DNA of 47,116 nt from a virus: positions 1-47,116 of IMG/VR virus record IMGVR_UViG_3300036943_000490. One strand, given 5' to 3'. The notes under the pieces were generated by a model. It had not been told where the DNA came from. It saw only the letters and a list, made by a program, of their open reading frames with translations, and did not search any database. How positions within the stretch are numbered: the stretch's first letter is position 1; the number at the start of each line of letters is the position of its first letter. Shown one piece after another: positions 1,251 through 43,781 of the stretch. Position numbers and translations under genes: made by a program.

Positions 1251-1276
1251 CCTTCATTCAATATTTGAACATAGGA
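1251..1276 (+). promoter_or_regulatory. Intercistronic palindromic motif (IPM) copy
   Basis: CCTTCATTCAATATTTGAACATAGGA, ends 7 nt before ATG 1284. Confidence 0.6.
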
Positions 1277-1283
1277 AATTATT

Positions 1284-2279
1284 ATGGGCGGATCAGGTGG
1301 TGGAAGTTCTTCTGGTGAGATAGACTATCCAGATTATATGAAGCATAGGCATCAATACTGGCTTGATAGGATGTCTACACTTATAGCTAATACAACATCT
1401 GGAGCGAGCCCTTTTGCTACAGCGACTGCTTATAATCCAGATTCTGCAGTAACTTATATGTTATCAGCTGCTTGTAATTTTGAAACGGCTGTTGATGATA
1501 TGGAAGCTACTACTGATTTTGCTAATGCTATTACTAATGCTATAACTCGTTTTGATGCCTTAGCTGAAACTCCTACATGGGTTGATCCAAGTCCTGCTGC
1601 TGCAGATGAAATATCTGCTGATGTTGATGCTTTTGAGTCTGTACAAGATGATCATATTGAGAATGATATTCTTCCTAGATTTAAAGCTGGAATGAGAGAT
1701 ATTAATGCTGTTCAGACATCTTCATTTGTTTTAGGACAGGCTTATATAGAAGCTTCTGGAAGTAGGGATGTAGCTAAATATCAAGGTGATCTTAGAACAA
1801 AAGCATACTTACTCAAAGATGAGCTTATGGCTAAGTCTGCTATTGCAGAAAATTCTTTTAATTTGCAACTTGAAACAGATCGTCGAAGAAATATTACTGA
1901 GATGAATCATGATATTCTTCAGTATATGATTCAGAAGATTCAATTCTCTCAAGCTGTGGCTCATTATCTTATTGAAGTTCGTCGTATGCAGATTGTTGCT
2001 AAGAAAGAACAGTCTGATGTTAATCTTCTTCTAGATGAACAAGATGCAAAATGGGATCTTGAGGCATATCAGTATGGAGCTAATATGTTAGGATCAATTG
2101 GTGGTGGAACAGTTACTAATAGTATGTCAAAGGCTAGTAAGATTTCATCAGCTTTAGGAGGAGCTTTATCTGGGGCAGCGGCTGGGACTATGGTTGGATC
2201 TGCTGTTCCTGGAATAGGAACTGCAGTTGGAGCAGCTGTAGGTGGTATTGTTGGATTAGCTGGAGGACTTTTATCTTAA
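1284..2279 (+). CDS. Virion-block protein with Gly-rich N-terminus and C-terminal glycine-zipper-like hydrophobic tail (331 aa)
   Basis: MGGSGGGSSSGE start. The C-terminus GGALSGAAAGTMVGSAVPGIGTAVGAAVGGIVGLAGGLLS is typical of membrane-inserting small-residue zippers. Role as an internal or ejection protein is inference only. Confidence 0.55.
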   Translation: MGGSGGGSSSGEIDYPDYMKHRHQYWLDRMSTLIANTTSGASPFATATAYNPDSAVTYMLSAACNFETAVDDMEATTDFANAITNAITRFDALAETPTWVDPSPAAADEISADVDAFESVQDDHIENDILPRFKAGMRDINAVQTSSFVLGQAYIEASGSRDVAKYQGDLRTKAYLLKDELMAKSAIAENSFNLQLETDRRRNITEMNHDILQYMIQKIQFSQAVAHYLIEVRRMQIVAKKEQSDVNLLLDEQDAKWDLEAYQYGANMLGSIGGGTVTNSMSKASKISSALGGALSGAAAGTMVGSAVPGIGTAVGAAVGGIVGLAGGLLS

Positions 2280-2299
2280 TTCATTTATTGAACAAAGGA
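2280..2299 (+). promoter_or_regulatory. IPM copy (left arm shortened)
   Basis: TTCATTTATTGAACAAAGGA, ends 7 nt before ATG 2307. Confidence 0.5.
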
Positions 2300-2306
2300 T
2301 ATTATT

Positions 2307-2780
2307 ATGGCCGGAGAGGTTATTTTTAACACACCTTTGAATACTCCTAACTATTCATCAGGTGGAAATTATGGAACTAATTGGTTATCAAGTGCTGCTG
2401 GAGCATTAGGAAATTGGATTAATAGAAATCCAAATCAGTTTGCTATTATGGCTGATACTATAGGATCTAAGTTAGCTCCTAATAATCCTTTTGCAGGAGT
2501 TGGAACTACATTTGGAAAGAGTGCTATTGCTGCTGAGGAAGCGGCTAGTGGTAATAATAAACTTAGCATGCTTGAAAGGCTTATTCAAGGATTGACTGAA
2601 ACTGGAAAGCCTGGAGGAAATAATATAACTATTAAAGCAAATCCTAATGGCGGATATACTGTTAATACTTCTACAGATTTAAAAGATCTAAATAATCCAA
2701 CACAGACTCCTGTTTTATCAGATAAATCAGCAAACGATCAATATGGAGTCTTATCTTCTTTTGTGGTAAATGGGAGGTAA
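2307..2780 (+). CDS. Hypothetical virion-block protein (157 aa, Gly/Asn-rich)
   Basis: ORF track; IPM plus SD upstream; no motif recognised. Confidence 0.6.
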   Translation: MAGEVIFNTPLNTPNYSSGGNYGTNWLSSAAGALGNWINRNPNQFAIMADTIGSKLAPNNPFAGVGTTFGKSAIAAEEAASGNNKLSMLERLIQGLTETGKPGGNNITIKANPNGGYTVNTSTDLKDLNNPTQTPVLSDKSANDQYGVLSSFVVNGR

Positions 2781-2781
2781 T

Positions 2782-3724: not shown

Positions 3725-6700
3725 ATGGGAATATTAGAAGATATTGTTAAACAAGATAATAAGACTTCTGATAATAATCCTGTTTTTAATTGGCTAGACA
3801 AAGCAATGACTACTAAATCTGCTGAGAGAAAATCTTTAGATTTAGATGCTGCTAAGTCTTTAACAAGAAATCTTTTCGTACCGCTTGAAGGTGCTAAGAC
3901 AGCTATAGACATTGGAAAAATAGGTACAAATTTTGTAGCAGGTTCTGTGAGTTATCTTCCTTCGTGGCTTGCTGGCTTAGGTTATACTGGAGCTCAAACT
4001 CTTGGAAATGCTTTTATAGATAGTAAGACTCCTGGCTCAGAAGGATACGAAAAGAAAACTCCTGAAGAGATAAGAGCAGAAGCTGAAAAAGTTAAAGAGA
4101 AAGTGGGATCTTTTATTCCTCAATATGATATAAAAACTTCTGAGGGAAAAGCAGTTAATAGAACAATAGAAAAAGGTTTTGAATATTTTAACACTGTCGC
4201 AGATGCTCTTCCATATCTTGTAGGTGTTACTAAAGAAGATAATCCAAGAACGCATATGTTAGCTCAGTTTATCTCTGAACTTGGAATGTTTAAAGGAGTT
4301 CATTCTATTGGCAATCGTGCTTTTGGAGCAAGTAAGAGGATTGCAAATAAGGTTAAAGATTATAAAGAAGGTAAAGGGGATATAAATACTGATATTACTT
4401 CTGAGTTGGATAAGATTTTTAAAAATCAGAATATAGATAAGCCAACAGCTGAAGATCTTGCTACACCTCAGAGTCGACAGGCTTATATTAGAAGAGTCAT
4501 GCCTGAAACAGCAGCTGATCGACAGGCTGAGATAGAAGCTGTTATGGGAGAGAAAGGATATAAAGAATCAGGAAGAGTTGAAGAACCTTCTGAATATATT
4601 ATTGAAGAACCTCGTAAGACTATTTCTGGAGAAAAGTCTGTAGCTCAGACTAATCTTGAAGCTCGTACTGATATTAATAAGAAGATTGAGATGATGAAAA
4701 AGATTCAACCTCAGTCTTCTATTTCAGCACTTGATAATGTTAATAGGATTAGAAAAGAACTTGGCTTAAAGCCTTATGAATTACCAAAACGAGAATTATC
4801 AAAGGAAGATGTTAAAGTTACTAATGTTAAAGAAGAAATCTTAACTCCTGAAGAAACAATAGATAAGTTTAATGTAGATAATCCTGGACATAGTGTTATG
4901 TTTAATGGAGAGCAAGATTTATCTATGTTAAATCGTGGTCCTATGTATTATTGGACTGCAACAGAAGGTAAAGCAAAAGGTGCAACTTTTACTACTGATT
5001 CATTGAAACCAGAAGAAATTCAAAGTAAACTTACTGAAACTGTCAATAGATTTAAACCTTCTAATGAAGAATTAGATAAAAGACTTAACGATGCTCTGAC
5101 AAAAAAAGCAGAGAATGGTCCTAAGATTGAAGAAGCTCTAATTAAATCTGATGATATTATTATAAGAGAAAAACCTGAATCCTTTGTTCAAAAAACAAAC
5201 AAAGGAAAGACCACTATTGATCTTGATCGTTTTCCTGACTGGGTTGAAACTGAGCTTGAAGCTATTTATAAAGATCCTAAAGCACCTAAGCGCATGAGTG
5301 GTATTGCTAAACAACTTCTCGAAACAGGTGAACTTGACAAACCAGGTCTTGTTAAGACTTTTAAGAAATGGTATGAAGGTGAGAAGAAAAAAGTTGATGA
5401 TATAGAAGTATCTGATAAGCTTCCTGAAAACATAGAACGAGTCGATCCTGAGACTGGTAGAGAAGCAGGCGGATGGGAGGTTCCTGAGAGGCCTGTTTAT
5501 AAGTCTAATTTTCAGGCTCAAACAGACTTTCTCACAGGTGAGACTGTTATTAAAAATAGTAAAGGAAAGGTTATAAAGAATAAAGATATTGCTCAGATGT
5601 ATCTTGAGGAGCTTGGTCTTGGAGGTAAGCTTGTTAAAGATCCTTCTTCAGGCGGCTGGAGAGTTAGACGTTCTGCTAAGGATAGAAAAGCTTTCGAAGA
5701 GAGACTTCGTCAGGAATATGAACAGCAACTTAAAGAAGAAGGTCTTGGTGAGGTTGAGCTTGAATCTTCGATGGATCTTTTCGATATTATTAATAATGAG
5801 AGAGGATCTGTTACTATTAATTTTAAGGAAGCAAAAGATAAGATTATAAAAATATTAAAAAACGAAAAAGGTGAAATAAGAATCTCACTAAAAGAAGCTG
5901 ATAAAATTCGAGATCTTCTTAATATCAAAGGTTATTCTTCCAACGATATCTCAAAAGCATTGAGAGCTAAAGGAATATCTGAATCTCAGATCAAAGAGAT
6001 TCTCCATAAATCCTCCGTTCAAATATCGAACAAAGGTGAGTCAAAGTTCTTTCAAAAAGGTGATGATCCTAATGAGTTACTTCCAAGACGAAAAAAACAA
6101 GGAGATAGGTTTGCTCCTGCTGTTACCAGAGCTATGGCAAATGCTATTGCTACAGCAAAAGATATTAAAGGAAGATTTTGGAATGAGAACTGGTCAATCG
6201 AAACAGGAGATAAAACCTTTGCAAGAATAACAGATGTTAACGGTCCGAAGATTGAGAATATTTTCTATGATAAAATTAAGAAAGCAGACGCAGATGCTTT
6301 GAAAGAGTTTAAACAAAAGCAGAAACTTTCGAAAGCTCTTCGGACAAATCTTTCTGGAAAATCTCAGAAGCGAATCGGTATATATGCTCTTGCTAAGCAA
6401 GAAGGTGGAGAAGCTATTCTTGAAAGAATGGGTTATACTGATATGCCTAAGCTTACTCCTGCTGAAATGAATGCTTATGAAACGTTAAGATCTGAGTTTA
6501 AAGAATATTATGATAGAGTTAATAATGCCAGAGAAGCAGCTGGTGAATCTCGTTTTCCTGCAGTTGATAATTATTTTACTTGGATAAACGATATGAACTG
6601 GCTTAAGGAAGAGCATGGAATAGGCATGACTGAAAACTGGCAGACGATGCAGAGTAAGCTTCATAATAAACAGATCGGACCTTCTTTCCGTTTTGCTAAA

Positions 6701-7957
6701 TATCGTGGAGGAGATATACCAAGAAAGCTTGAACTTAATCCTTTTACAATCTATGAAAAATATTCTAAGGCTGCTCTTGATACTATTCATAAAGCAGAAC
6801 CTCTTGCACAACTTCATGAACTTCTTGGAGAACGTTATGGACTTCAGAAGAATGCACCTAATCTTTATAACTTCTTAATGGAATGGAGAGGTACTCAGAC
6901 TGGTAAACCTCATATTTTTAACATAGCTAATCCTCAAACTATCAGAGCGCTTAGAATTCTTAATAATAATGTTATCATGGGAATCTTATCAGGCACAGTT
7001 CGATCTGCATTGATTCAGCCTACAGCGCTTCTTGGTTCTTTCGTTGAACTTAATCATCATATTGTGACTGGACTTGTTAAGAGTCTTGATCCTAAAGAAT
7101 GGAAGCGAGCTTATGAGACTTCTAATACTCTTATAACTCGCTCTCCTGATGTTGCTATATATGAAGCTATGGAAGGATCTGGAAAACTATTAAAAGCACA
7201 AAGAAAAATTGCAAATGCTGCTTTGACTCCTCTTACAGTTCTTGATCAGCTATCTGCAACTGCTACATGGCTTGGAGCTGAAGCTAGAGCGAAAGCTCTT
7301 AAAATGGAAGATCCTGTTAAGTATGCAGATAGCATCGTAGATAAAACTCAAGCATCAGCTGCTAAGACAAATCGTGCTCCTATTCAACGACATATTCTTG
7401 GTCAGACAGTCACTGGTCTTCAGACCTTTGTAATCAATCACTGGGGATGGTTAACAAGAGATGTTCTTGGAATAGGTAAAGCAGATCGTTCTAATCCAGA
7501 GACAGTTGCTAATGTTATGAAATTTGTTATGGCGACAGCTCTTATTAATTCTGCTTATGAAGATTTCTTAAATATTAAATCTCCTGTTGCCACACCGATA
7601 AGAGAATATGAAAGAATAAAAGATGAAACAGATGATAATTCCAAAGCCATCATGGCTGCTTCGAAAGAGCTTCTCGAGTATATACCAATCTATGGTGGGA
7701 CTATTAAATATGGTTCGCAGTTTGGTGGTCCTCTTGTTAATACTCTTTGGGATCTTTATTCTGAAGCTGAGAAAGGTGAGATAGGATATAAGGAAGTTGG
7801 TAAGCTTATGGGGATTCCTGGGACAAATCAGTTTTCGAAATCTTATCGTGCTTATGAAAGAGAAGGATCGTTGGCAGATATTATTCTTGGAAGATATATA
7901 GAAACACCGAAGAGTGGAAGAGGGAGGACAGGCAGGGGAAGCAGGTCCTCCCGATAG
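3725..7957 (+). CDS. Giant virion protein (1410 aa), candidate internal core/ejection protein
   Basis: Single uninterrupted ORF with a K/E-rich central region. It is the last gene of the plus-strand virion block. No sheath or tube genes are seen, so a podovirus-type internal protein is more likely than a tape measure. Function is positional inference. Confidence 0.45.
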   Translation: MGILEDIVKQDNKTSDNNPVFNWLDKAMTTKSAERKSLDLDAAKSLTRNLFVPLEGAKTAIDIGKIGTNFVAGSVSYLPSWLAGLGYTGAQTLGNAFIDSKTPGSEGYEKKTPEEIRAEAEKVKEKVGSFIPQYDIKTSEGKAVNRTIEKGFEYFNTVADALPYLVGVTKEDNPRTHMLAQFISELGMFKGVHSIGNRAFGASKRIANKVKDYKEGKGDINTDITSELDKIFKNQNIDKPTAEDLATPQSRQAYIRRVMPETAADRQAEIEAVMGEKGYKESGRVEEPSEYIIEEPRKTISGEKSVAQTNLEARTDINKKIEMMKKIQPQSSISALDNVNRIRKELGLKPYELPKRELSKEDVKVTNVKEEILTPEETIDKFNVDNPGHSVMFNGEQDLSMLNRGPMYYWTATEGKAKGATFTTDSLKPEEIQSKLTETVNRFKPSNEELDKRLNDALTKKAENGPKIEEALIKSDDIIIREKPESFVQKTNKGKTTIDLDRFPDWVETELEAIYKDPKAPKRMSGIAKQLLETGELDKPGLVKTFKKWYEGEKKKVDDIEVSDKLPENIERVDPETGREAGGWEVPERPVYKSNFQAQTDFLTGETVIKNSKGKVIKNKDIAQMYLEELGLGGKLVKDPSSGGWRVRRSAKDRKAFEERLRQEYEQQLKEEGLGEVELESSMDLFDIINNERGSVTINFKEAKDKIIKILKNEKGEIRISLKEADKIRDLLNIKGYSSNDISKALRAKGISESQIKEILHKSSVQISNKGESKFFQKGDDPNELLPRRKKQGDRFAPAVTRAMANAIATAKDIKGRFWNENWSIETGDKTFARITDVNGPKIENIFYDKIKKADADALKEFKQKQKLSKALRTNLSGKSQKRIGIYALAKQEGGEAILERMGYTDMPKLTPAEMNAYETLRSEFKEYYDRVNNAREAAGESRFPAVDNYFTWINDMNWLKEEHGIGMTENWQTMQSKLHNKQIGPSFRFAKYRGGDIPRKLELNPFTIYEKYSKAALDTIHKAEPLAQLHELLGERYGLQKNAPNLYNFLMEWRGTQTGKPHIFNIANPQTIRALRILNNNVIMGILSGTVRSALIQPTALLGSFVELNHHIVTGLVKSLDPKEWKRAYETSNTLITRSPDVAIYEAMEGSGKLLKAQRKIANAALTPLTVLDQLSATATWLGAEARAKALKMEDPVKYADSIVDKTQASAAKTNRAPIQRHILGQTVTGLQTFVINHWGWLTRDVLGIGKADRSNPETVANVMKFVMATALINSAYEDFLNIKSPVATPIREYERIKDETDDNSKAIMAASKELLEYIPIYGGTIKYGSQFGGPLVNTLWDLYSEAEKGEIGYKEVGKLMGIPGTNQFSKSYRAYEREGSLADIILGRYIETPKSGRGRTGRGSRSSR

Positions 7958-8726: not shown

Positions 8727-9254
8727 TTATCTTCCCTTCTCCTTCCATCTTAAATAAAAATTATCTTCAAAATCTCTCAAACCTATATGAGATTTATTAA
8801 CCATATCCTTTGTCATATCATCGTAGAATTTTATCTTTGTCACAACAAGATCTGTAATTCCAGCATTTATAATAATAGCCATACAGTTTTTACAAGGAAC
8901 TTCACAAGTCATATACATTATAGCATCTTTACATATAACTCCATGCCTCGCTGCATTAGCTATACAATTTACCTCAGCGTGTGCTGCTATACAAATATCA
9001 AGACCTTCTCCTGATTTATAACCTAGAGTATAACGTGGACACTTTCCGTCGTCCATATTTGTGTATACTATTTCTCCGTTTCTTTTTATTGTTCTTGTAT
9101 CACATCTTTGTATTCCTCTTGCAGGTCCGTTATATCCCGTTGCTATAATAGATTTATCTCTGACAAGAATCGCTCCGATTTTACGAGAAAGACATTGAGA
9201 GTTGGATGCGACAGTGTTTGCTATATCATAGAAATATTGATTCCAGCGGTTCAT
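8727..9254 (-). CDS. dCMP deaminase (CMP/dCMP-type zinc deaminase)
   Basis: HAEVNCI zinc/catalytic motif followed by PCKNCMAIIINAGI; size 175 aa. Confidence 0.85.
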   Translation of the reverse strand: MNRWNQYFYDIANTVASNSQCLSRKIGAILVRDKSIIATGYNGPARGIQRCDTRTIKRNGEIVYTNMDDGKCPRYTLGYKSGEGLDICIAAHAEVNCIANAARHGVICKDAIMYMTCEVPCKNCMAIIINAGITDLVVTKIKFYDDMTKDMVNKSHIGLRDFEDNFYLRWKEKGR

Positions 9255-9484
9255 TTCTTCTTCCCTTTCACTTCTTCTTGAAGTTTAGAAAGTCTATCTG
9301 TTGCTCCTTTTAGTTTGCCTAAGTTATCATCTTTATCATCTGTAGGAACACTATCATTCATAATAATACTTTTAATTGTATCAATCTCATCACAAATCAT
9401 AACAAGTGCATCTTTAATTCTATCATGTTGAGCACGTTGAGTTGGAAGAATGTTTTTAATTTCTTTTCTAATTTCAGTTGTCAT
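9251..9484 (-). CDS. Hypothetical protein (77 aa)
   Basis: ORF track; 4-nt overlaps with both neighbours. Confidence 0.55.
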   Translation of the reverse strand: MTTEIRKEIKNILPTQRAQHDRIKDALVMICDEIDTIKSIIMNDSVPTDDKDDNLGKLKGATDRLSKLQEEVKGKKK

Positions 9485-9680
9485 TTTCTTCCTCCTTTAA
9501 AGTAGGTCTTAAAAGTTTCGTTTCTGTGTTTATCTCTAATGGATAATACTTCCAGTCTTTTATTTCTCCTTTCTCTATTATAGGTTGTTGGACATAAAGG
9601 TTAGAACGTACCCATTTTCCTGTTGTTGCTGTGCATGATGATAAGATTATTAGAGATGATATGATTAGTAGTTTTTTCAT
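9474..9680 (-). CDS. Small putative lipoprotein (68 aa)
   Basis: MKKLLIISSLIILSSC: basic n-region, hydrophobic core, L-S-S-C lipobox. Confidence 0.55.
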   Translation of the reverse strand: MKKLLIISSLIILSSCTATTGKWVRSNLYVQQPIIEKGEIKDWKYYPLEINTETKLLRPTLKEEENDN

Positions 9681-10390
9681 TCTTTCTCTCCTATTCTTAT
9701 TTTAGCTAATTCTTCTACATAACCATATATATGAAGTCCTTTACTAGTACAAATCATTTCTCCTTGTTCAATATTTATTTCAGATGCCATATATTCTTGA
9801 AGTACCGATATTGCAGCAAGGTTTGCTGGAAAACCTCCCCATAGATCCCAAGATCTAAAATAAGGAAAAAAATGTAGTTTATTATCTTGAATTCTTGTAT
9901 CAATATGTCTTAGACAAGGAGGATCATTAAGAGAAAGATCATTTGGTTGAGCTATTTGTAGAACCATTTGATTATTTCTATGACCGTTTCTTTTATATGT
10001 TTCAATTATTTCTGTTATTTGATTAAAACCTGCATTTTCTAACTCTCCACTCCATGTATTACATAACCTAGATCCATAAGTATAAGCTTCATTTGATTTC
10101 TTATCAGCTGTTAAAAGATATGGAATATAATCAATTAGATATTGTTTTTCTACTGGGGGAGGAATAGTACAACTTTCTGGCATCTCAGGTAATAAAGGAA
10201 GATTATCAACTGTTCTAAGCCAAGGTTTTAAAATATGTACATCTATCCAATCAAACTCAATTCTATGTTGTCCAGCATAAGAACCTTTATCTATTTTAAA
10301 CTTTCTTCCTTTATTTACTAATGTATGTATTAGTTGAAACCAAGCATCTGGTAAAGTAATTGCTTCAATAATTATCCTATTCAATTTCAT
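9677..10390 (-). CDS. ThyA-superfamily enzyme (short thymidylate synthase-like; dUMP C5-methylase or hydroxymethylase)
   Basis: DPPCLRHIDTRIQDNKLHFFPYFRSWDLWGGFPANLAAISVL aligns by eye with the ThyA core PPCH...KLSCQLYQRSxDxxLGxPFNIASYALL. The catalytic Cys, RS.D and the Asn of PFN are retained. Only 237 aa. Confidence 0.6.
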   Translation of the reverse strand: MKLNRIIIEAITLPDAWFQLIHTLVNKGRKFKIDKGSYAGQHRIEFDWIDVHILKPWLRTVDNLPLLPEMPESCTIPPPVEKQYLIDYIPYLLTADKKSNEAYTYGSRLCNTWSGELENAGFNQITEIIETYKRNGHRNNQMVLQIAQPNDLSLNDPPCLRHIDTRIQDNKLHFFPYFRSWDLWGGFPANLAAISVLQEYMASEINIEQGEMICTSKGLHIYGYVEELAKIRIGEKE

Positions 10391-10713
10391 TTCTTTTCCT
10401 CCTTTTTAATGTTTAAAAGAACTTCAACATATCTTATATAAAGCGAATTAATATTCCTTAATTCCTCTGCACAACGATATATAGTCACAATCTTATCAAG
10501 TGCATCAATCCCACCTTCGTTCGATAATTGAACAAAGAATCGAGCTTGCTCTATCCATTCCTTATGATCGCGTTGATCCCAAGTATCTTCTATTGTCTGT
10601 TCAAGATAATAACAACACTTATCTGATGTTTCATAAATAAGAATATTATCTTCATGTTTCTTACGACAGAAGATAGTATGAAGAATTTCTGTTACTTGTT
10701 TAAGATTTTTCAT
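10387..10713 (-). CDS. Hypothetical protein (108 aa)
   Basis: ORF track; overlaps both neighbours. Confidence 0.55.
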   Translation of the reverse strand: MKNLKQVTEILHTIFCRKKHEDNILIYETSDKCCYYLEQTIEDTWDQRDHKEWIEQARFFVQLSNEGGIDALDKIVTIYRCAEELRNINSLYIRYVEVLLNIKKEEKK

Positions 10714-11908
10714 TTTTCATCGGCTTGTTATGGACTAAGATTGTGTTACCCACCTTCTCAACAATCGTTATATATTTCATCGTTCGCAAAGTCTTTATAA
10801 TCCTCTCCATTTCATAATCATCAACGTCTCTAACAAACTCAGCCATCAGATCTTGCATTTTTATCTGCTCTTTTAAAGCGATAAATCTCATAATTGCAGA
10901 AACAATATCAGATTTATTCGATCTACCCATACCAGCGAAAACATTCGGCATATTTCTTTCTGTCTCAGATAAAAAAGCAATTGCTCTTTCTAAGTCTCTG
11001 ACTCTTATAATCATCTCATTCGATCTCGATGCTGAGAAAATCATAGAAAGCTTTGTTATATGCCCTGGTCTTCGTGACCAGTAATGCTTAAAATTTCTCG
11101 GATCGAAAGGTGGGTCTATAGGCATAGTCATATAAAATTCAGTCCAAGCAGCTACATAATTTTTCGAAACTTTGAATCTGCCGGAAAGTGCCTTTATTTG
11201 ATGAAGATCTTCTGTGAGTTTTCTTTTAAGATCTCTCCCTTCCTCAGTATGAGTGAAAAATGGGCATGGAACTCTTGCTCTGATCATCGGCTCGTAAACG
11301 AAGATGATACGACTTGACAAACCAGATCCGACAATTTCTGTTGGCATAGCCATTTGTATAAGATCTGGCGTCGTCGCTCCGATGAGGTTAAGAAATACTC
11401 CAATAATTTCTTCTGTGCCTCTACCGATAGTTTCATAGATAAAACGTGGTCTGCAATCATAAAAGTCGCATAAGATTGACATGAATTCTTTGTTCTGATA
11501 ACCAAGAAAAACGGTTAGCTCAGGCGAGAAACATGTCAAAGATGAGTGGGTTGATATATAGTTATCTTCTGTTTCTTCTCCAATCTCAGTATCCTCGCTC
11601 TCCATAAGACGTTTTATAAGAGCTTGTGGAGAATTTGCATCAGCTGCGATTGGTACATTCAGTTCGTCTACAAATTCCCTAGCAAAAGCCATAGCTGTTC
11701 CTTTTCTTGCATCTCCAGCAGGACCAGTTATTGCTATGAAGAAGTTTGGATAATGTGTTAGAGATCCCCAGACAAGTTTACACTTTCTTTGAAGTGCAGC
11801 TGCTATCGTGGATATAGCACACCATTCATGATACTTTGTTGGAGGTTCGCTATCATGACAATAGTATTTATATGAGTCGAACCAATCAGAAAGATTACGA
11901 TCCGGCAT
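10700..11908 (-). CDS. DUF3987/VirE-like P-loop NTPase (putative replicative helicase or primase-associated)
   Basis: FIAITGPAGDARKGTAMAF is a degenerate Walker A after a conserved hydrophobic segment (WCAISTIAAALQRK). Lies next to the polymerase. Family assignment is from memory of the DUF3987 pattern. Confidence 0.4.
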   Translation of the reverse strand: MPDRNLSDWFDSYKYYCHDSEPPTKYHEWCAISTIAAALQRKCKLVWGSLTHYPNFFIAITGPAGDARKGTAMAFAREFVDELNVPIAADANSPQALIKRLMESEDTEIGEETEDNYISTHSSLTCFSPELTVFLGYQNKEFMSILCDFYDCRPRFIYETIGRGTEEIIGVFLNLIGATTPDLIQMAMPTEIVGSGLSSRIIFVYEPMIRARVPCPFFTHTEEGRDLKRKLTEDLHQIKALSGRFKVSKNYVAAWTEFYMTMPIDPPFDPRNFKHYWSRRPGHITKLSMIFSASRSNEMIIRVRDLERAIAFLSETERNMPNVFAGMGRSNKSDIVSAIMRFIALKEQIKMQDLMAEFVRDVDDYEMERIIKTLRTMKYITIVEKVGNTILVHNKPMKNEKS

Positions 11909-14953: not shown

Positions 14954-14977
14954 CCTTTGTTCAATTATTAAATGAAG
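14954..14977 (-). promoter_or_regulatory. IPM copy
   Basis: Sense strand CTTCATTTAATAATTGAACAAAGG, 8 nt before ATG 14945. Confidence 0.6.
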
Positions 14978-31930: not shown

Positions 31931-31955
31931 CTATATTCGTTTATTGAACAAAGGA
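31931..31955 (+). promoter_or_regulatory. IPM copy
   Basis: CTATATTCGTTTATTGAACAAAGGA, 8 nt before ATG 31964. Confidence 0.6.
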
Positions 31956-34505: not shown

Positions 34506-34750
34506 TGAAAAAAGCAATTATGATTTTAGCGTTTTTGGGTCTGCCGTTTGTTGCAATTGCCGGTGAAATAAGTTTCGATGACCTCATCAAAACCGAGGCC
34601 CGACTCGAAATCCTGCAACGCCAATATGAGCAAAAATACAACGAGATCACAATTAATCTGGCCGTAGTAAAAGCTAAGATCGCCAAAGCAAAAATGGAGA
34701 AAAAGGACGATGAAAAGCCTGTTGAAAATCCTGCTAATACTGGCCGTTAG
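34505..34750 (+). CDS. Signal-peptide coiled-coil protein (81 aa)
   Basis: Start set to ATG 34505 (TGATG overlap with the upstream stop): MKKAIMILAFLGLPFVAIA/GE. Confidence 0.55.
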   Translation: MKKAIMILAFLGLPFVAIAGEISFDDLIKTEARLEILQRQYEQKYNEITINLAVVKAKIAKAKMEKKDDEKPVENPANTGR

Positions 34751-35366
34751 CCTTTGCCTGTGCGGTCCTGCATGGCCGTTTGACGATGATGAGATTTTGC
34801 AGCCGGTTGCGAGTGGTAGTCCGTCCTACTTACTCAACGAGTCATTTACCGGCACGGGAACGCCAACCGGTTGGTCAACATCAGGTACGGTTACGTTTAA
34901 TGATAATGCTACCCTGAGTAGTGATTATGCAATGTTAATATCACCATCTTTTACGGAGCAGTCAACTGCATATATAAAATTTGAATACACATCATCTGCG
35001 GTAGCATACGACTCGATCGCAATATTCTTTTATCTCCGTAACTCAACGACAACAATTGCAGAGATTAGAATCCAAAGCAACTGGCTTCCTATTATATATC
35101 ACGGAACTACTACCCAATATGGTAGTACGGGAGACGAATTTACAGCCGCAACAACACACTATGTGTGGATAGATTACGTTGCGTCATCTGGGTCAGATGA
35201 CGGTACATTTGATCTGTACATTAATACTTCTGATTCTAAACCAGGGGTTGCAACACTGAGTTTAACTGGCGGAACATCAACCGATGGTGTTGATAACATT
35301 CGGTTTTCTCGTCGTTTCCAAGATAATATTTTTGATAACGCTAAGGTAAGTGGCGATGAATTTTAA
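34710..35366 (+). CDS. Signal-peptide protein (218 aa), beta-rich
   Basis: MKSLLKILLILAVSLCLCGPAWP. The mature part is Ser/Thr/Gly-rich, suggesting a jelly-roll or lectin-like fold (inference only). Confidence 0.55.
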   Translation: MKSLLKILLILAVSLCLCGPAWPFDDDEILQPVASGSPSYLLNESFTGTGTPTGWSTSGTVTFNDNATLSSDYAMLISPSFTEQSTAYIKFEYTSSAVAYDSIAIFFYLRNSTTTIAEIRIQSNWLPIIYHGTTTQYGSTGDEFTAATTHYVWIDYVASSGSDDGTFDLYINTSDSKPGVATLSLTGGTSTDGVDNIRFSRRFQDNIFDNAKVSGDEF

Positions 35367-36699
35367 AACGTTTGTTTTGGTGTCGTTTCTTGCATCAATT
35401 GCGGCGACATCGTGGTGTAAAGATCTTTATGTTGCTACAAATGGTAGCGACTCAACCACTTATGCTGCAAACGATATCGACCACCCGTGGTTAACGATTG
35501 AGTATGCATGGGGATCAGCTCAATCTGGAGATATAGTTTTCTATCGAGCAGGTACCTATTCTATCACTACATCCTATGATAGTTTGGGAAATGCAGATAA
35601 CGTCACTCACCAGCCCTATAATGGTGAAACTGTGATTTGGGATACTAATCAGACGTTAGAGGCAATCCGAGTTGGAAACGAATATATTACCATTGATGGA
35701 TTTATTATAGATGGTAGTTCCTTAACAGGCAGCGAGGCTGGTTTTTTTCGGGTTGGGTATGATAATCCAGCGACACATTTTACATTAAAAAATTGTACTG
35801 CTACCATTGGATTCTGCTCGGATAATTGTGGAGTTGTTCATGCAAGGAGCACGTATGCCAATTATCTGAAAGTAGAAAATAATACTCTAACAGGAAGCGG
35901 TTTTGGAGGGGGTGGGATTAGCAATTCATCCGTGGTTTGGCTTGACGCACTTCTTTATGCTGAAATTATAAATAATACAATTAGTTATGCTCCTGTTGGT
36001 ATTTATTATAAGCACAGCAATGAGAGATTGGTTGATGCTGGACCATTGATACAAAATAATTACGTTTACAATTGCAGTAGGAATGGGATGTTGCTGCATT
36101 GCAATTATGGAAGGATAATAAACAATCTCTTGGTTGACGCCAGTATATCATCTGGTCAGAATGGTGGTGAATCCGATCCTGGAGGAGCTGGATCTGATTA
36201 CAACGAATATTCACACAACACTTTATACAATACGCACTGGAGCTCAGTGTGTGCTGATGGTAGCGATCCAGGATCTACACATAATATTGTCTCTAATAAT
36301 ATTTTTTATGGTTACCCATTTCGTCCAGAGTTTGAAAATTCGTGTTCTGAGGATATGTTTTTATCAGGAGACTATAATCTTTTTCCATCTGGAACAGCAG
36401 TCATATATCGATCAACGAACTATACACTGTCAGCTTGGCAATCTGTTTATTCTACTGACATTAATTCGATTTCAGATGAGCCGTTATTTGTTGGAGCCGG
36501 ATCACCAGCATCAATTTCCGACTATGCTCTCACTACTGAATCTCCAGGATATCAAGATTGCGCCGATGGTACGGATATGGGGGCTGACGTTTCGTTGGTT
36601 GGAGTCAACGCATCTAGCGGTGGAATCAGAAAAACATATGATGCTGGATCATCAGCAATGACATTCGGTGGCAGCACGCCGACGACATTTGCAGAATAG
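35356..36699 (+). CDS. Signal-peptide right-handed parallel beta-helix protein (pectate-lyase-like; candidate glycan depolymerase)
   Basis: MNFKTFVLVSFLASIAATSWC. Periodic rungs: ENNTLTG, INNTISY, QNNYVYN, INNLLVD, SHNTLYN, SNNIFYG. ATG 35356 preferred over GTG 35350. Confidence 0.6.
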   Translation: MNFKTFVLVSFLASIAATSWCKDLYVATNGSDSTTYAANDIDHPWLTIEYAWGSAQSGDIVFYRAGTYSITTSYDSLGNADNVTHQPYNGETVIWDTNQTLEAIRVGNEYITIDGFIIDGSSLTGSEAGFFRVGYDNPATHFTLKNCTATIGFCSDNCGVVHARSTYANYLKVENNTLTGSGFGGGGISNSSVVWLDALLYAEIINNTISYAPVGIYYKHSNERLVDAGPLIQNNYVYNCSRNGMLLHCNYGRIINNLLVDASISSGQNGGESDPGGAGSDYNEYSHNTLYNTHWSSVCADGSDPGSTHNIVSNNIFYGYPFRPEFENSCSEDMFLSGDYNLFPSGTAVIYRSTNYTLSAWQSVYSTDINSISDEPLFVGAGSPASISDYALTTESPGYQDCADGTDMGADVSLVGVNASSGGIRKTYDAGSSAMTFGGSTPTTFAE

Positions 36700-36870
36700 G
36701 TATTTGGCGATAGTGAGTACCAACCTTAAAATTTAGTCCAAGGTTTAATCAACTGGAGGGCAAACCCAAAGGGGACCGATGCAGTGGCTGCATATATTAT
36801 ATTGATATAACTTATCTTAATATATAGTAATGAATACTCTTCAATTATGAAATAAATTTGGAGAAACTAA

Positions 36871-37258: not shown

Positions 37259-37283
37259 CTATGTTTGATTATTAAACAAAGGA
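37259..37283 (+). promoter_or_regulatory. IPM copy
   Basis: CTATGTTTGATTATTAAACAAAGGA, 7 nt before ATG 37291. Confidence 0.6.
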
Positions 37284-37524: not shown

Positions 37525-37549
37525 CTACGTTCAAATATTGAATTAAGGT
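37525..37549 (+). promoter_or_regulatory. IPM copy
   Basis: CTACGTTCAAATATTGAATTAAGGT, 9 nt before ATG 37559. Confidence 0.55.
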
Positions 37550-37558
37550 AAAATCAAA

Positions 37559-39493
37559 ATGCCTCATATAGCATATGGAGATATAAGTAGTAAGAATGTA
37601 GCAAATTTTTCGTCTTATAATTTTGACTACGCTTATCCAAAAGGTTTGAATCTTAAACCAGGAACAAAGCTTCATGATGATCTTGTAGATAAGATTATAA
37701 AACGAGCTACTGATTCTGCCACTAATATGTCTAATAGATTTGAATCGTGGCAAAAGATTGATCAAACTCTTACTACTTATATAGACCTTTCAGATGATGA
37801 AAAGAAACTTAATGTTAAAGATGCATCAAAGCCAGTTTCAATCGTTTTTCCTCATACTTATGCTATTTTAGAGACTATTCTTGGTTATTTGATTTCAGCA
37901 TTTTTTCAAGAACCTATCTTTCGTTACGAAGGTGTTGGACCTGACGATACGATAGGAGCGATTATGATGGAGAAGATTATTGATCTTCAGGTTAATCGCG
38001 CAAGAATGATTCTTGGTTTGCATACACAGTGGAGAGATTGCCTCGCTTATGGTTTTGGAGTTCTTGCACCTTCTTGGCATATTGAGAAAGGTTATAAGAC
38101 TGTTAAGAAAACTAAGTCTCGATGGTTTGGTCCTGATGAAAATTATAAAGCATTTGAAGAAGCAGTTCTTTTTGAAGGAAATCAGGTTTCAAATATTGAT
38201 CCTTATCTTTGTCTTCCTGATCCAGATCGACCGATAACCGAAGTTAATAAAAGTGAATACTTTGGATGGATTGAGAACACTAATTATTATGATCTTCTTT
38301 CTCTTGAAAGAGATGATGATTCTTACTTTAATGTTAAGTATCTGCAGGCATTAGCTAATAAACGAACTTCAATTTATACTGCAGATAATTCTGGTAGAAA
38401 TGCTAAGATCGACACACTTAAAATTAATGATAATACTTACACTAAACCGACAGATATTATTCATAAGTATGTAAAAATTATTCCTAAAGAATGGAAGATA
38501 GGAGATGAAAATTATCCTAAAATCTATCTATTCTCTATCGCAAGTGATAAAGTTCTTATTCGGATGCAGCCTCTTGGGCTTACTCATGGTCAGATTCCTA
38601 TTTGCATTGCCGCTCCTGATTATGATGGTTATTCTATTAATCCTATATCACGCCTTGAAATTCTTTATGGAATGCAACATACGTTAGATTGGATGTTTAA
38701 TACTCATGTTGCGAATGTTAGAAAGGCTATTAACGATACTATTATTTATGATCCTTATCTTCTTAACTCTAATGATCTTAAAGATCCAAAACCCGGTGGA
38801 CTTGTTAGACTAAGAAAAGCTGCTTGGGGAAGAGGCGTTAAAGATACATTTGCACAGCTTGGAATTACAGATGTAACCAGAGGACATATTGCTGATGCTG
38901 AATTAATAAAGCATGCAATGGAAAAAGTTGGTGGTGTTGATGCTTCATCAATGGGCAGTCTAAGACAAGGAGGTCCAGAGCGTTTAACAGGTGCAGAATT
39001 TAGGGGAACCCAAGCTGGGACGTTCACTCGCTTAGAGCGCATAGCTAGAATTATTGGTGTTCAATCTATGCAACCTCTCGGATATATGCTAGCTCATCAT
39101 ACACAGCAGTTTATGTCTGAAGAAGTTTATATGAATATGTCAGGAAGATGGCAAGAGACTCTTATGAAAGAGTATCAGGCTACAGATCCTAATAATAAAA
39201 TTAAAGTTTCACCTTTTGATATTCTTGTTGACTATGATCTTAAGGTTAGGGATGGATCAGTTCCTGGTGGTAATTATTCAGCTGTCTGGGTTAAGATGTT
39301 TGAGGTTTTAGCAAATCATCAAGAATTACTTCAGACCTTTGATATAGCAAAGATTTTTACTCATATAGCTAGAAATGAAGGAGCTAAGAATGTTGAAAGT
39401 TTCCTTCGAATTCGACAACAGCCTACTGAACAAGTTCAACAACAAGTTCAGGATGGAAACCTTATTCCAACATCGGAGCTTATGGCAGCATGA
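37559..39493 (+). CDS. Portal protein
   Basis: 644 aa, upstream of scaffold and capsid. The N-terminal region (RFESWQKIDQ...PVSIVFPHTYAILETILGYL) resembles podovirus head-tail connector proteins, from memory. Confidence 0.7.
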   Translation: MPHIAYGDISSKNVANFSSYNFDYAYPKGLNLKPGTKLHDDLVDKIIKRATDSATNMSNRFESWQKIDQTLTTYIDLSDDEKKLNVKDASKPVSIVFPHTYAILETILGYLISAFFQEPIFRYEGVGPDDTIGAIMMEKIIDLQVNRARMILGLHTQWRDCLAYGFGVLAPSWHIEKGYKTVKKTKSRWFGPDENYKAFEEAVLFEGNQVSNIDPYLCLPDPDRPITEVNKSEYFGWIENTNYYDLLSLERDDDSYFNVKYLQALANKRTSIYTADNSGRNAKIDTLKINDNTYTKPTDIIHKYVKIIPKEWKIGDENYPKIYLFSIASDKVLIRMQPLGLTHGQIPICIAAPDYDGYSINPISRLEILYGMQHTLDWMFNTHVANVRKAINDTIIYDPYLLNSNDLKDPKPGGLVRLRKAAWGRGVKDTFAQLGITDVTRGHIADAELIKHAMEKVGGVDASSMGSLRQGGPERLTGAEFRGTQAGTFTRLERIARIIGVQSMQPLGYMLAHHTQQFMSEEVYMNMSGRWQETLMKEYQATDPNNKIKVSPFDILVDYDLKVRDGSVPGGNYSAVWVKMFEVLANHQELLQTFDIAKIFTHIARNEGAKNVESFLRIRQQPTEQVQQQVQDGNLIPTSELMAA

Positions 39494-41080: not shown

Positions 41081-41104
41081 CTTTGTTCAATAATTAAACG
41101 GAGG
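41081..41104 (+). promoter_or_regulatory. IPM copy
   Basis: CTTTGTTCAATAATTAAACGGAGG, 7 nt before ATG 41112. Confidence 0.6.
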
Positions 41105-41588: not shown

Positions 41589-41616
41589 CGATTATAATCT
41601 TTAAAGGAGATATAAA

Positions 41617-41774
41617 ATGGCTGTTCTTGGGATGAGAGGTAACGGCGATTGGGTAACTGATCAAAGACCGAAAAATTGGCGAGAGAAAATTCTGCAGCTT
41701 TATCCTAACGGTGATGCTCCGTTGACTGCGATTTTGTCAATGATGAAATCTCAGTCGACAGATGATCCGGAGTT
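41617..41774 (+). CDS. Major capsid protein, exon 1
   Basis: AAAGGAG SD; MAVLGMRGNGDWVTDQRPKNWREKILQLYPNGDAPLTAILSMMKSQSTDDPEF. The frame then hits TAG, and TAA 27 nt later. It continues in phase at 42597 after intron removal (DPEF|NWWTKGLAV). Confidence 0.7.
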
Positions 41775-42596
41775 TAAATAGTTGGACTCCCTTAGGCGAA
41801 ATCCTAAGTAAAAAACAGTGAGATATGCTGGAACTTCCTAAAGCCAATGTTACCACAGAGTAAAAATACAAAGGATAAAACAATGGATAATCAGCAGGGA
41901 AAAACTTATGAATCAGGTATAAATGCTATGGCTTATGTATTAGGTGCATTTCAAGGTGATGGTTATTATAAATATCATTACTATGGAAATGGAGGCTGGT
42001 ACATAATTGAGATTAGTAAGGGTGATAAAGAGGTGATAGAACGCTGTCAGTTTATCATAAATAGTGTTTTTAATACTTCATATTCCTTACTAAGTAGAAG
42101 AATAAAGAGTGGACTTATCATTTGGACCTTGAGAACCAGTAAAAAAGTTATTTATGATTTTATGACTATAGCTACTGGATTTAAAACTATGATTCCACAT
42201 GCTATTATTACTGGTGACAAACAGACACAGTTAAATTATATATCTGGATTATTTGATACAGATGGTAGTGTAGCAATGAATAATGATAGGTTTCAACTTA
42301 AATACTCTTCTGTAGAACTTAAAGTCATAGAGAGTGTGGCTTTATTATTACAACGTCTTGGAGTTAAGGTTGGTAAAATAGGTTCTTATAATAAAGGTGG
42401 TTATAAGACCGTTTATAATATTCAACCTAATATTAGAAGTTTTATAGACGCTGGATGTATATTTTATAATAATAAGAAAGCTTCTCGTATTAAAGCCTAT
42501 ATTAATAAGTTTGCCTCAGAGACTTTGCACACTGAGTCCATAACTATGGATTAAGATAAAGTCCGGCTTATGGCGAAAGTCATAAGGTGTCCACTG
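41775..42596 (+). mobile_element. Group I intron (822 nt) carrying a LAGLIDADG homing endonuclease ORF
   Basis: P1: exon GGAGTT (41769-41774) pairs with GACTCC (41785-90), with the terminal U-G wobble at U41774-G41785. P10: AGTTG (41780-84) pairs with the first exon-2 bases CAACT (42597-42601). The last intron base is G42596. P2-like hairpin cttagg-cgaaat-cctaag (41791-41808). GAAA-tetraloop hairpin cttatggc-gaaa-gtcataag (42567-42586). Confidence 0.75.
41847..42554 (+). CDS. LAGLIDADG homing endonuclease (double-motif)
   Basis: Two motifs: YVLGAFQGDGY and YISGLFDTDGSV. Lies entirely inside the intron. The true start may be the internal ATG at 41883. Confidence 0.8.
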   Translation: MLPQSKNTKDKTMDNQQGKTYESGINAMAYVLGAFQGDGYYKYHYYGNGGWYIIEISKGDKEVIERCQFIINSVFNTSYSLLSRRIKSGLIIWTLRTSKKVIYDFMTIATGFKTMIPHAIITGDKQTQLNYISGLFDTDGSVAMNNDRFQLKYSSVELKVIESVALLLQRLGVKVGKIGSYNKGGYKTVYNIQPNIRSFIDAGCIFYNNKKASRIKAYINKFASETLHTESITMD

Positions 42597-43725
42597 CAAC
42601 TGGTGGACTAAAGGCTTAGCTGTTCAGGCTGCTGCAGTTACTAATGTTTATACTGATGCAGGTATGACAACTGCTTATACAACTGGTGGAGCTGCTGCTG
42701 ATACACTTTATGCTAAAGTTGCTACATCTGATTTAGCTAAACAATTTCGTCCTGGACATCAGGTGCTTCTTAGGAATTCTGATAACTATGCTGATGATAC
42801 AAATGCTAAAGTTGTTTCTGTTACTCCAAATGGGTCATCTTCTCAAATCGCTGTAACATTGCTTGAAGCTGATCCGACTACGACTGGTATTGCAGATTGT
42901 GATAGGATTCTTATTATAGGTAATATCAATGCTGAGGGCGCTGCTATGCCTCAGGCGGTTGCATATGATCCTACTAAATATTATAACTATACTCAAATCT
43001 TTCGAACTCCTTTGAGTATTACTCGAACGGCTCGTAAGACTCGTCTTCGTACTGGTGATCAGTATAAGGAAGCCAAACGTGAGGCTCTTGAGCTTCATTC
43101 TATTGAAATGGAAAAGGCTTTCATGTACGGTATTAAGACTGAGAATACTGGATCAAATGGTCAGCCTGAGCGTACAACTGCTGGTCTTGTTCGTTCTATT
43201 ATTGATAATAGTGGAAATGTATCTAATTTTGTGACTGAGACTGATACTGATTATGCTGGAAAAACTTGGCTTGAAGCTGGTGAAGAGTGGCTTGATGCTC
43301 AGTTGACTGAAATCTTCCGATATGGTGGAACAGATCGTATGGCTTTTTGTGGTACGACTGCAATTCTTGCTATTAACAAACTTGTTAAGGAATATGGTTC
43401 TTATAAGCTTGAATCTGGGACTGCTGAATATGGGATTAAGGTTAAAACATGGATGACTCCTTTTGGAGATATTCATCTGAAGGTTCATCCGCTTTTTTCT
43501 TATGAGGCAACGGATCGAGCTAATATGGTTATCTTTGATCCTAAGGATCTTGTCTATCGTTATATCGATGATACTACTTTTTATAAGGAAGGAGAAAAAC
43601 AAAACACTGGTCGTGGAAGGATTGATGGAACTGACGAGGAATTCTTGACTGAAGCTGGTCTTGAATTTCATCATTATGCTAAGACTGGTTTTCTTACCGG
43701 TTTTGGTACTGATAATACTCAGTAA
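42597..43725 (+). CDS. Major capsid protein, exon 2
   Basis: In phase with ORF 42664..43725, and open from 42597 (c aac tgg tgg act aaa ggc...). Joined product is about 428 aa. Followed by a strong terminator. Confidence 0.7.
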
Positions 43726-43737
43726 GATTATTCGATT

Positions 43738-43759
43738 GGGAGGTTCTTCGGAGCCTCCC
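43738..43759 (+). terminator. Rho-independent terminator after the capsid gene (UUCG tetraloop)
   Basis: gggaggttc-ttcg-gagcctccc: a 9-bp stem (one G-U) followed by ttcgtttaataatt. Confidence 0.7.
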
Positions 43760-43781
43760 TTCGTTTAATAATTGAATGGAG
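43758..43781 (+). promoter_or_regulatory. IPM copy
   Basis: CCTTCGTTTAATAATTGAATGGAG, 2 nt before ATG 43784. Confidence 0.55.

Follow-up and report, generated by a model that had tools for sequence, protein, structure and literature searches.

The phage genome

The stretch of DNA studied here is the IMG/VR record IMGVR_UViG_3300036943_000490, analysed over its whole length of 47,116 nucleotides (nt) and called the window below. An imperfect palindrome of 23 nt recurs throughout it, mostly in the short gaps between genes, and is the subject of this work. The window ends in an exact direct repeat of 127 nt (1-127 is identical to 46990-47116), and one open reading frame (ORF) crosses the junction; the exact terminal repeat implies that the assembly is circular and the genome complete, at about 46,989 bp. 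Its gene content is that of a tailed phage. Leftward genes run from about 28.3 kb to 7.96 kb; rightward genes start at 28.4 kb, cross the circular junction and reach 7.96 kb. The main landmarks are these:

10700-11908, minus strand: primase
12032-14686, minus strand: family A DNA polymerase
15165-16562, minus strand: g20, a fusion of a ParB N-terminal domain and a DNA methyltransferase
28719/28722-29372, plus strand: small terminase (terS)
29365-30897, plus strand: large terminase
37559-39493, plus strand: portal

Exonucleases, a Sak4-like ATPase, a ligase, a dCMP deaminase and a single tRNA, tRNA-Ile(TAT), are also encoded, and sigma-70-like promoters are found in the early region. A scan of about 55 ORFs of the window against Pfam, PHROGs and NCBIfam detected no RNA polymerase, sigma factor, helix-turn-helix (HTH) regulator, repressor or integrase. 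Two long ORFs, of 1410 and 655 amino acids (aa), have no matches in PHROGs, Pfam or the PDB. Megablast returned no cultured phage relative of the window. The only database relative by protein similarity is the metagenome-derived Desulfofustis phage LS06-2018-MD01 (locus L001, OP947158.1), with a terminase that is 43% identical.

A repeated palindrome at gene junctions

Across the 22 strong copies in the window the motif has the consensus CTWYRTTCAATWATTGAACRWAG / CTTCGTTCAATnATTGAACAAAG over its 23 nt; written as a duplex, the site is CTTTGTTCAATAATTGAACAAAG. Eight positions never vary among these copies (C1, T2, T6, T7, A17, A18, A22 and G23), and the reverse-complement symmetry reaches the centre of the motif. 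With up to two mismatches, the core TTCAATWATTRAAC gives 40 strand-hits over both strands, compared with 5.9±2.7 (maximum 12) in dinucleotide shuffles. A half-site criterion of up to 6 mismatches of 22 finds 25 sites, the 22 strong copies and three marginal ones, where Markov-1 random genomes yield a mean of 0.85 and a maximum of 3. Chance, or the AT-rich context of Shine–Dalgarno (SD) sequences, is thereby excluded as the origin of the motif. The first-pass annotation had listed 19 copies; all of them are among the 25, with a register that differs by at most 5 nt (e.g. the copy placed at 2280 lies at 2275-2297), and the enrichment over shuffled sequence bears the list out.

The placement of the copies is far from random. 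Ten of the 11 same-strand junctions with gaps of 25-45 nt carry the motif; it is missing from all 44 junctions whose gap is 14 nt or less. A start codon lies 5-13 nt past the end of 15 of the 22 strong copies, close to the 14 counted previously; 13 of the 22 begin within 5 nt after an upstream stop codon or overlap it, and for seven there is no adjacent start. Successive sites are 0.2-4.7 kb apart, some falling even within the longest gene. The individual copies are as follows:

1252-1274, plus strand: CTTCATTCAATATTTGAACATAG; the g02 stop precedes it by 1 nt and the g04 start follows at 9 nt; the orthologous junction in the Desulfofustis phage also has the motif
2275-2297, plus strand: overlaps the stop of ORF 1284-2279; next gene starts 9 nt downstream
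5182-5204, plus strand: within the 1410-aa ORF 3725-7957; absent from the earlier list
6013-6035, plus strand: within the same ORF 3725-7957 (g07); absent from the earlier list; site kept in loci L098, L101 and L102 with a differing peptide
10515-10537, minus strand: within the conserved ORF 10387-10713 (g14); an intragenic copy specific to the window; absent from the earlier list
14955-14977, minus strand: g19 stop at 0 nt, g18 start at 9 nt
17436-17458, minus strand: right after the stop of ORF 17459-17752; abuts a tRNA-like sequence (17433 to 17222)
17763-17785, minus strand: g26 stop at 4 nt, g25 start at 10 nt
21290-21312, minus strand: ligase stop at 3 nt, g33 start at 13 nt
22886-22908, minus strand: 1 nt after the g36 stop; sigma-70-like promoter (22860 to 22832) 25 nt downstream; next start 115 nt away
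23935-23957, minus strand: g38 stop at 1 nt, g37 start at 5 nt
25300-25322, minus strand: ORF 25133-25291 starts 8 nt downstream
26525-26547, minus strand: 5 nt after the g47 stop; next start 75 nt away
26749-26771, minus strand: g47 start 10 nt downstream; sigma-70-like promoter (26831 to 26803) about 25 nt upstream
27370-27392, minus strand: g48 start 9 nt downstream
28693-28715, plus strand: shortly before the small-terminase gene; orthologous motif in many relatives
31931-31953, plus strand: g55 stop at 0 nt, g56 start at 10 nt
32546-32568, plus strand: in the first codons of ORF 32538-34505; neither SD nor start after it
37259-37281, plus strand: g63 stop at 0 nt, g64 start at 9 nt
37525-37547, plus strand: portal start 11 nt downstream; the orthologous junction in the Desulfofustis phage also has the motif
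41081-41103, plus strand: g68 stop at 0 nt, g69 start at 8 nt
43759-43781, plus strand: 33 nt after the major-capsid stop, 5 nt before the g73 start
26857-26879, minus strand: marginal motif, 6 mismatches of 22, in a 367-nt non-coding stretch of the early region
16839-16861, strand not assigned: marginal match with 6 mismatches, perhaps by chance (random genomes give about 0.85 sites of this kind)
43189-43211, strand not assigned: within the capsid gene, a marginal match with 6 mismatches that could be due to chance

This placement agrees with what had been noted for the unusual copies: those at 22886 and 26525 follow a stop only, the one at 17436 abuts the tRNA-like RNA, and the one at 32546 lies in coding sequence, at the start of its ORF.

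The palindrome in related phages

Relatives were collected by profile-guided scans of viral contigs with the terminase and the DNA polymerase, together with a scan of genome contigs. These gave 170 loci, or 172 counting the Desulfofustis phage and the window. Repeated 23-nt palindromes, with at least three copies per locus, are present in 74 of the 172, amounting to 454 sites. Ten of the relatives come from genome collections (L082-L091), and these are nine contigs of 8-51 kb and one 2-kb fragment, all stand-alone and none a prophage. The metagenome-assembled genomes (MAGs) in which they had been binned belong to unrelated organisms, among them Nanohaloarchaea, WOR-3, Sphaerochaeta, Nitrospirae and Bathyarchaeia; the ten are almost certainly phage contigs that were mis-binned there.

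A good illustration of how the motif varies is the Desulfofustis phage, which has nine copies of GCTATGTCCCAAATTGGGACATAGC. The length and the outer arms, CTATG...CATAG, are those of the window motif, while the inner arm differs symmetrically: TCCCAA|A|TTGGGA in place of TTCAAT|A|ATTGAA. This pattern is general. The outer arms CTWTG...CAWAG are kept in most loci and the inner arm is lineage-specific and symmetric, examples being GGTGATT/AATCACC (L029, where the site is CTATGGTGATTAAATCACCAAAG), GGTCAAA/TTTGACC, GGGGAAT/ATTCCCC, GTTACAT/ATGTAAC and GGTTAAA/TTTAACC. In deeper branches the outer arms are different, e.g. GTTCATACAAA... and GCGTGTACAAT... In all, 20 or more symmetric variants of the half-site were found, each specific to a lineage, and the copies within each genome are nearly uniform.

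The positions are conserved along with the symmetry. Distant relatives carry the motif at the same junctions: before terS, before the portal gene, between g02 and g04, after g26 (the commonest motif-bearing junction in the phage family), after the ligase gene and before the DNA polymerase gene. Uniform copies in each genome, recurring at orthologous junctions, imply that all sites of one genome changed together.

Some relatives have tandem arrays, with copies at 525/560/594 in L029 and at 2350/2390 in L014. The first 640 nt of L029 are a non-coding contig start that carries the motif four times, with a tandem run of three at intervals of 34-35 bp, and that has other direct repeats (caccctat three times, ctctgggtaaaaaaa twice); this may be a regulatory or origin region.

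RNA hairpin or duplex DNA

Reverse-complement symmetry means that the motif is read in a double-stranded form, either as an intramolecular hairpin or as duplex DNA. A hairpin in polycistronic mRNA could serve for translational coupling, being melted by the terminating ribosome, as the operator of an RNA-binding regulator, or as a processing or stabilising site. The placement of the copies suits such a role, in transcribed spacers, co-oriented with the genes and close to stops and starts, not only in the window but family-wide, where, of 195 sites that were scored, 86 overlap a stop or follow one within 5 nt. The inner arm changes symmetrically from phage to phage, as a stem would, and the near-perfect palindromes of relatives such as L029 would fold well.

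Is pairing maintained within copies? We shuffled the right-arm letters among copies and counted the paired stem cells. In the window 75.5% of the cells are paired, against 78.9±1.4% after shuffling, with 498 of 500 shuffles at least as high, and there are 2 double-change pairs where 4.8 are expected; the arms are thus not compensatory within a copy, as the first-pass annotation had stated. Over 42 dereplicated related genomes with 304 sites, 2453 cells are paired compared with 2517±9.9, and 1000 of 1000 shuffles are higher, in a test that is slightly biased towards anti-correlation because sites were picked by total mismatch count. A selected stem would still show a clear excess of pairing despite this bias; there is none, and compensation within copies is seen in none of the 42 genomes.

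Wobble pairs are not favoured either. On the sense strand A·C oppositions are no rarer than G·U (32 versus 15 in the window, 35 versus 24 in ten genomes). The window copies fold only marginally, with a mean of -2.75 kcal/mol for the sense strand, compared with -1.4±1.7 for random 25-mers, and three copies at 0.0. With covariation, wobble bias and folding energy all tested, the RNA hairpin is supported by none of them. We also dropped the idea that pairing is selected against where it would occlude the SD, since copies fused to an SD are paired as well as the others (Mann-Whitney p = 1.0 and 0.17).

The location of certain copies is also awkward for a translational signal. In the Desulfofustis phage the SD (AGGAG) is a separate element 14-25 nt downstream of the palindrome, whose copies are 24-40 nt from the starts. 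One copy in the window precedes an RNA gene. The intragenic copy at 6013-6035, in the middle of a 4.2-kb gene, recurs at the same aligned position in L098 (CTTCATTCAAAATTTAAACAAAG), L101 (CTATATTCAAAATTTAAACAAAG) and, in degenerate form, L102. The peptides encoded at this site and its homologues vary (SSVQISNKG, SFIQNLNKE, SYIQNLNKE, ASVRILNEG) and no start codon follows, which suggests constraint at the level of DNA. A start-associated sequence would lie near a start at essentially all of its copies, unlike seven of the 22 in the window, those of the Desulfofustis phage and this intragenic one. Finally, a purely structural stem would not need to be homogeneous within a genome. We therefore consider an RNA hairpin unlikely.

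Taken together, the tests favour duplex DNA that is read as two independent half-sites. As in an operator in double-stranded DNA, the half-sites vary independently under reverse-complement symmetry, and the lineage-specific consensus is altered in concert at all sites. The earlier preference for a dimeric protein site over a simple RNA hairpin is strengthened on its second half, by the lack of compensation in the window and in the 42 genomes, the lack of a G·U bias and the weak hairpins; protein binding itself is something that we infer.

A proposed operator-like site and its candidate reader

We propose, at about an even chance, that the motif is a 23-bp dyad-symmetric site in double-stranded DNA for a two-fold symmetric, phage-encoded protein, and is operator-like. 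Each half-site (CTWYRTTCAAT in the window phage) would be read independently, with the A/T-rich centre acting as a spacer. The most likely effect would be that the bound protein at gene junctions controls transcription genome-wide, by roadblock or silencing, as mycobacteriophage stoperators do. A phage-specific DNA-binding protein that co-evolved with its sites would leave just this pattern: the same junctions kept, the inner half-site changed symmetrically and in concert.

The association with the ribosome-binding site, which the first-pass annotation placed foremost in describing the element, looks incidental. The genome is so compact that a constrained sequence of 23 bp fits only in the stop-start gaps of 25-45 nt, so the site is located there. 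The motif ends in AG (A22 G23) and the spacers have scant room, so this AG is shared with the SD (AG-GAG). The fusion would then be a by-product of compaction, with the function elsewhere, and it is not general: it is missing from the Desulfofustis phage, from the conserved intragenic copy and from the copy before the RNA gene.

A candidate reader emerged from clustering the conserved ORFs across all related loci. Two small proteins adjoin the ParB-fold methyltransferase gene in nearly every relative, and one of them is the following:

16930-17133, minus strand: g23, 67 aa, candidate binder, with a ribbon-helix-helix (RHH)-like N-terminus RPRLTIDLKEYQ...L..G

We found it in 71 related loci, in each of which it is encoded upstream of the ParB-fold methyltransferase and the DNA polymerase; the g23 family as a whole has 738 members. 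The N-terminus of the family, (Y)RPR[LF][ST][IVF][ED][IVL]TEEQ...L..G, reads like the strand, helix A and glycine turn of an RHH protein. An AlphaFold2 (AF2) model built with 62 homologues has a predicted local distance difference test (pLDDT) score of 86 and shows an extended N-terminal segment, a helix at 13-20, a turn at G25 and a helix at 26-45. ParD in the PDB matches weakly (E = 0.61). Half-sites that start with GTT, GTC or GAT and not with CTWYG go with the g23 strand RFSFE and not RLS[IV][ED]. We regard g23 as the best candidate for the protein that reads the site; it is possible, rather than probable, that it is the binder.

Several observations weigh against an operator of this kind or against g23 as its reader. 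The Pfam ParD model matches three of 25 g23 members, in register and weakly (best E 0.0086), and hhalign of g23 against ParD and CopG sequences is in register with E of about 0.005 at only around 7% probability. Foldseek against the PDB and BFVD, and a profile search of the PDB, gave nothing significant for the g23 fold. The g23 strand does not track the inner arm, the same YRPRLSIEITEEQ occurring with both GGGGATT and GTTCATT, which implies that other g23 residues or another protein read the inner arm. A simple code between beta-strand and half-site was accordingly rejected where the inner arm is concerned, and the strand goes only with the class of outer arm. The scan of the ORFs mentioned above detected no HTH protein, repressor or integrase, and the relatives are all stand-alone contigs (about 46-51 kb), for which a lysogeny-type silencer has no obvious use. 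The selection bias of the arm-shuffle test belongs here as well. Lastly, the SD-proximal bases are co-oriented with transcription and the sites lie very near stops, which a role at the RNA level fits equally.

Other possible readings: loading sites, linkers and promoters

The neighbours of g23 suggest another use for a DNA site. Order is fixed as g23, g21, ParB-fold methyltransferase and DNA polymerase in all 69 of the 69 loci that have g23, the methyltransferase and the polymerase (window 15165-17133, minus strand, for the first three), g21 being a small basic protein. The g20 product matches the ParB N-domain only (profile positions 23-117 of 186) and has an N6/N4 DNA methyltransferase domain; the HTH region that reads parS was not found in its ParB part, as it would be in a ParB/parS system. 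If g23 were to read the site, it might load g20, with g21, as a clamp-type ParB-fold NTPase-methyltransferase, which would slide and modify the genome between parS-like sites. The dispersal of the motif at 0.2-4.7 kb, with copies even in the longest gene, would suit this arrangement. Fusions of a ParB fold and a methyltransferase are common in phages, with their role unexplained (PMC12704722), and ParB-like proteins activate DNA-modifying enzymes of phages (PMC13229309). Against this, the basis is gene neighbourhood, with NTP binding, the clamp and a contact between g23 and g20 all conjectural, and no such motif has been reported for the many phages with these fusions. We think it improbable that the motif is a loading site.

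The motif could also be a recombination linker, a cassette boundary or a small mobile palindromic element, an option that the first-pass annotation had left standing. It would favour the gain, loss or exchange of genes at their borders, and its spread and homogenisation would explain uniformity within a genome. Homology breakpoints do cluster near the motif: 10.9% are within 30 nt of a copy, compared with 1.9% of random positions. Gene-sized insertions or deletions abut the motif in three pairs of relatives (L137/L150, L106/L109 and L103/L130), and Cluster O phages have deletions between palindrome copies (PMC4351075). However, motifs and mosaic joints both fall in intergenic spacers, so this enrichment is confounded. 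The joints that we inspected end at spacer edges beside a single motif copy, one of them replacing the motif, and none runs from motif to motif; the three breakpoints between the Desulfofustis phage and L045 are away from motifs. Lineage-specific inner arms would hinder exchange, no transposase is found in the window, and the intragenic copies at 6013 (g07) and 10515 (g14) align with their homologues without an insertion. A linker is, on these grounds, a poor prospect.

Least probable by far is a promoter, whether a template-strand hairpin like that of the N4 virion RNA polymerase or a promoter of a phage sigma factor or polymerase with its start at the SD: a 23-nt unit directly before genes and an RNA gene, an A/T-rich centre and a template strand that folds slightly better than the sense strand (-3.7 versus -2.75 kcal/mol, not significant) speak for it, and it is opposed by the lack of any RNA polymerase or sigma factor among the scanned proteins (three of which, from large ORFs, were also searched against PDB sequences), by the DNA polymerase being the sole large protein conserved with the motif, by the missing base-pair compensation, by palindromy, which is not expected of promoters, and by the ordinary sigma-70-like promoters elsewhere in the window, which also fit the earlier statement that the element is not itself a sigma-70 promoter.

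Comparison with known systems

Among the closest parallels is the 17-bp dyad-symmetric repeat 5'-TGTTCGGNNNCCGAACA of the Cluster O mycobacteriophages (the Corndog group), which is present in more than 30 copies; its function is unsolved and its authors suspected a dimeric DNA-binding protein (PMC4351075). Both are phage-specific palindromes in tens of copies with an A/T-rich centre, mostly in short gaps and at the 5' ends of genes with some intragenic, and both have positions that are conserved among relatives. Even the outer TGTTC...GAACA is common to the Cluster O repeat and the window core TGTTCAATAATTGAACA. Unlike the Cluster O repeat, with its 17 bp, invariant arms and no reuse as an SD, the window motif has 23 bp and degenerate arms, and it comes from an unrelated lineage and host; the family that carries it is uncultured and very large, with 20 or more variants of the half-site.

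In Cluster K, the start-associated sequence (SAS) and extended start-associated sequence (ESAS) resemble the window motif in being repeated at the position of the ribosome-binding site, a few bases before starts (PMC3203893). The ESAS is an imperfect inverted repeat with subcluster-specific consensus, and its non-compensatory arm departures led the authors to favour DNA-binding proteins (PMC3203893). The SAS is asymmetric with 13 bp, the ESAS has 17-bp arms and a variable spacer, and both go with non-structural genes only (PMC3203893). The window palindrome, in contrast, is compact, occurs on both genome arms before all gene classes, and is separable from the SD in relatives. A further repeated element, in SPbeta, is bound by the MrpR repressor (PMC10516654). 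We consider the window element to be of the same kind as the Cluster O, ESAS and SPbeta repeats, in an unrelated uncultured phage family. What sets it apart is an architecture of 23 bp, last bases that double as an SD, and a well-resolved series of co-varying half-sites.

The stoperators found in Cluster A phages such as L5 are asymmetric 13-bp sites for a monomeric HTH repressor, gp71, of a temperate phage, where the bound protein blocks transcription. They too number 20-30 with a consensus that co-evolves with the phage's own protein, and the window sites match them in lying genome-wide in short stop-start gaps, co-oriented with the genes. They differ from the window sites, which are palindromic, in a phage with no repressor or integrase detected and with relatives that lack signs of integration.

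RHH proteins such as Arc and Mnt of P22, CopG and omega of pSM19035 bind palindromic or repeated sites of about 20 bp as dimers or dimers of dimers, through an N-terminal beta-ribbon. The half-site centres of the window motif (T6T7 and A17A18) are likewise about one helical turn apart, and the inner arm GGTGATT/AATCACC of L029 resembles the omega heptad WATCACW. RHH operators are one or few and lie at promoters, unlike these roughly 22 sites at gene junctions, and membership of g23 in this fold is weakly supported.

In the KorB-OB system of plasmid RK2 and in ParB-parS, a dozen palindromes dispersed over a mobile genome are read by a ParB-family protein with a small dimeric partner. The window is similar in that a ParB-fold protein is encoded beside the candidate binder; it is different in that g20 carries a methyltransferase, the HTH was not found and there is no ParA, which makes the link to the motif a conjecture. 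Phages also have RNA hairpins between the genes of polycistronic transcripts, such as T7 RNase III sites and REP-like stabilisers, and these too are related repeats. They are pairing-dependent, longer and more stable, whereas pairing is not maintained in the window motif and its predicted stability is marginal. An N4-type promoter would call for a phage RNA polymerase, and searches of Pfam, PHROGs, NCBIfam and, for large ORFs, PDB sequences gave no match.

Other features of the genome and its relatives

Between the motif copy at 17436-17458 and tRNA-Ile lies the tRNA-like sequence mentioned above (17222-17433, minus strand). Its 5' end, GGGTGGTGGCGGAATAGGTAGACGC, corresponds to an acceptor and D-arm of the long-arm tRNA type and its 3' end, GCAGGGTGCAAATCCCTGCCCACC, to a T-arm and acceptor, with about 125 nt between the two. 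ARAGORN, intron options included, and Rfam made no call at 17433-17222. A comparable interrupted tRNA-like sequence adjoins a motif at about 5250-5390 of L103. Free-standing HNH endonuclease genes are found in several relatives (L083 10890-11491, L002 425-958 and L094 4095-4613); that of L083 begins directly after a motif copy, and motif-bearing spacers may be permissive insertion points for such genes.

Forty-five loci share the conserved gene g35 (22333-22770, minus strand). Set between a strong sigma-70-like promoter (22860 to 22832, 11 of 12 positions) and a terminator with a 13-bp stem (22325 to 22294), it looks like a self-contained transcription unit (22294-22860). As a conserved monocistronic early gene it was considered as the binder and set aside, with a mediocre AF2 model (pLDDT 66.7) and a null result from Foldseek.

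The region 32000-36700 lies between terminase and portal and may be an acquired island. Its GC content is 0.44, compared with 0.35 elsewhere, and three large ORFs in it (32538-34505, 34710-35366 and 35350-36699) have no Pfam or PHROG match and no homologue in related loci; a PDB sequence search with the first gave nothing significant. The major capsid gene (41617-43725) is split, with ORFs 41617-41781 (87% identity) and 42946-43725 (68%) both matching a single capsid ORF of L007. Between the halves lie a LAGLIDADG homing-endonuclease ORF (41883-42554) and, at 42433-42585, a match to a group I intron that stays below threshold (24 bits), and the gene is probably interrupted by an intron. At 8727-10390 (minus strand) the dCMP deaminase has in its vicinity a protein with a weak likeness to thymidylate synthase (56 bits, over the C-terminal half only); this pair may represent a pyrimidine-modification pathway instead of plain dTMP synthesis.

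Implications

Palindromes of this type, scattered over gene junctions and particular to a phage, have been on record from a small number of actinobacteriophage clusters for more than a decade. The very large family described here, of uncultured phages of about 47 kb, has at least 20 natural symmetric variants of the inner arm, which makes the question of their binder and role tractable: the binder should come to light by co-variation, and swaps of specificity can be tested. That fusion to the ribosome-binding site can be an effect of compaction is also a warning against annotating such motifs as translational signals.

The ParB-fold methyltransferase beside g23 is one of a class of phage proteins that is widespread and still lacks an explanation; a link to the palindrome, if true, would give this class a function. 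Should the sites prove to be loading sites, they would represent a parS-like system that has been repurposed for genome-wide DNA modification and not for segregation.

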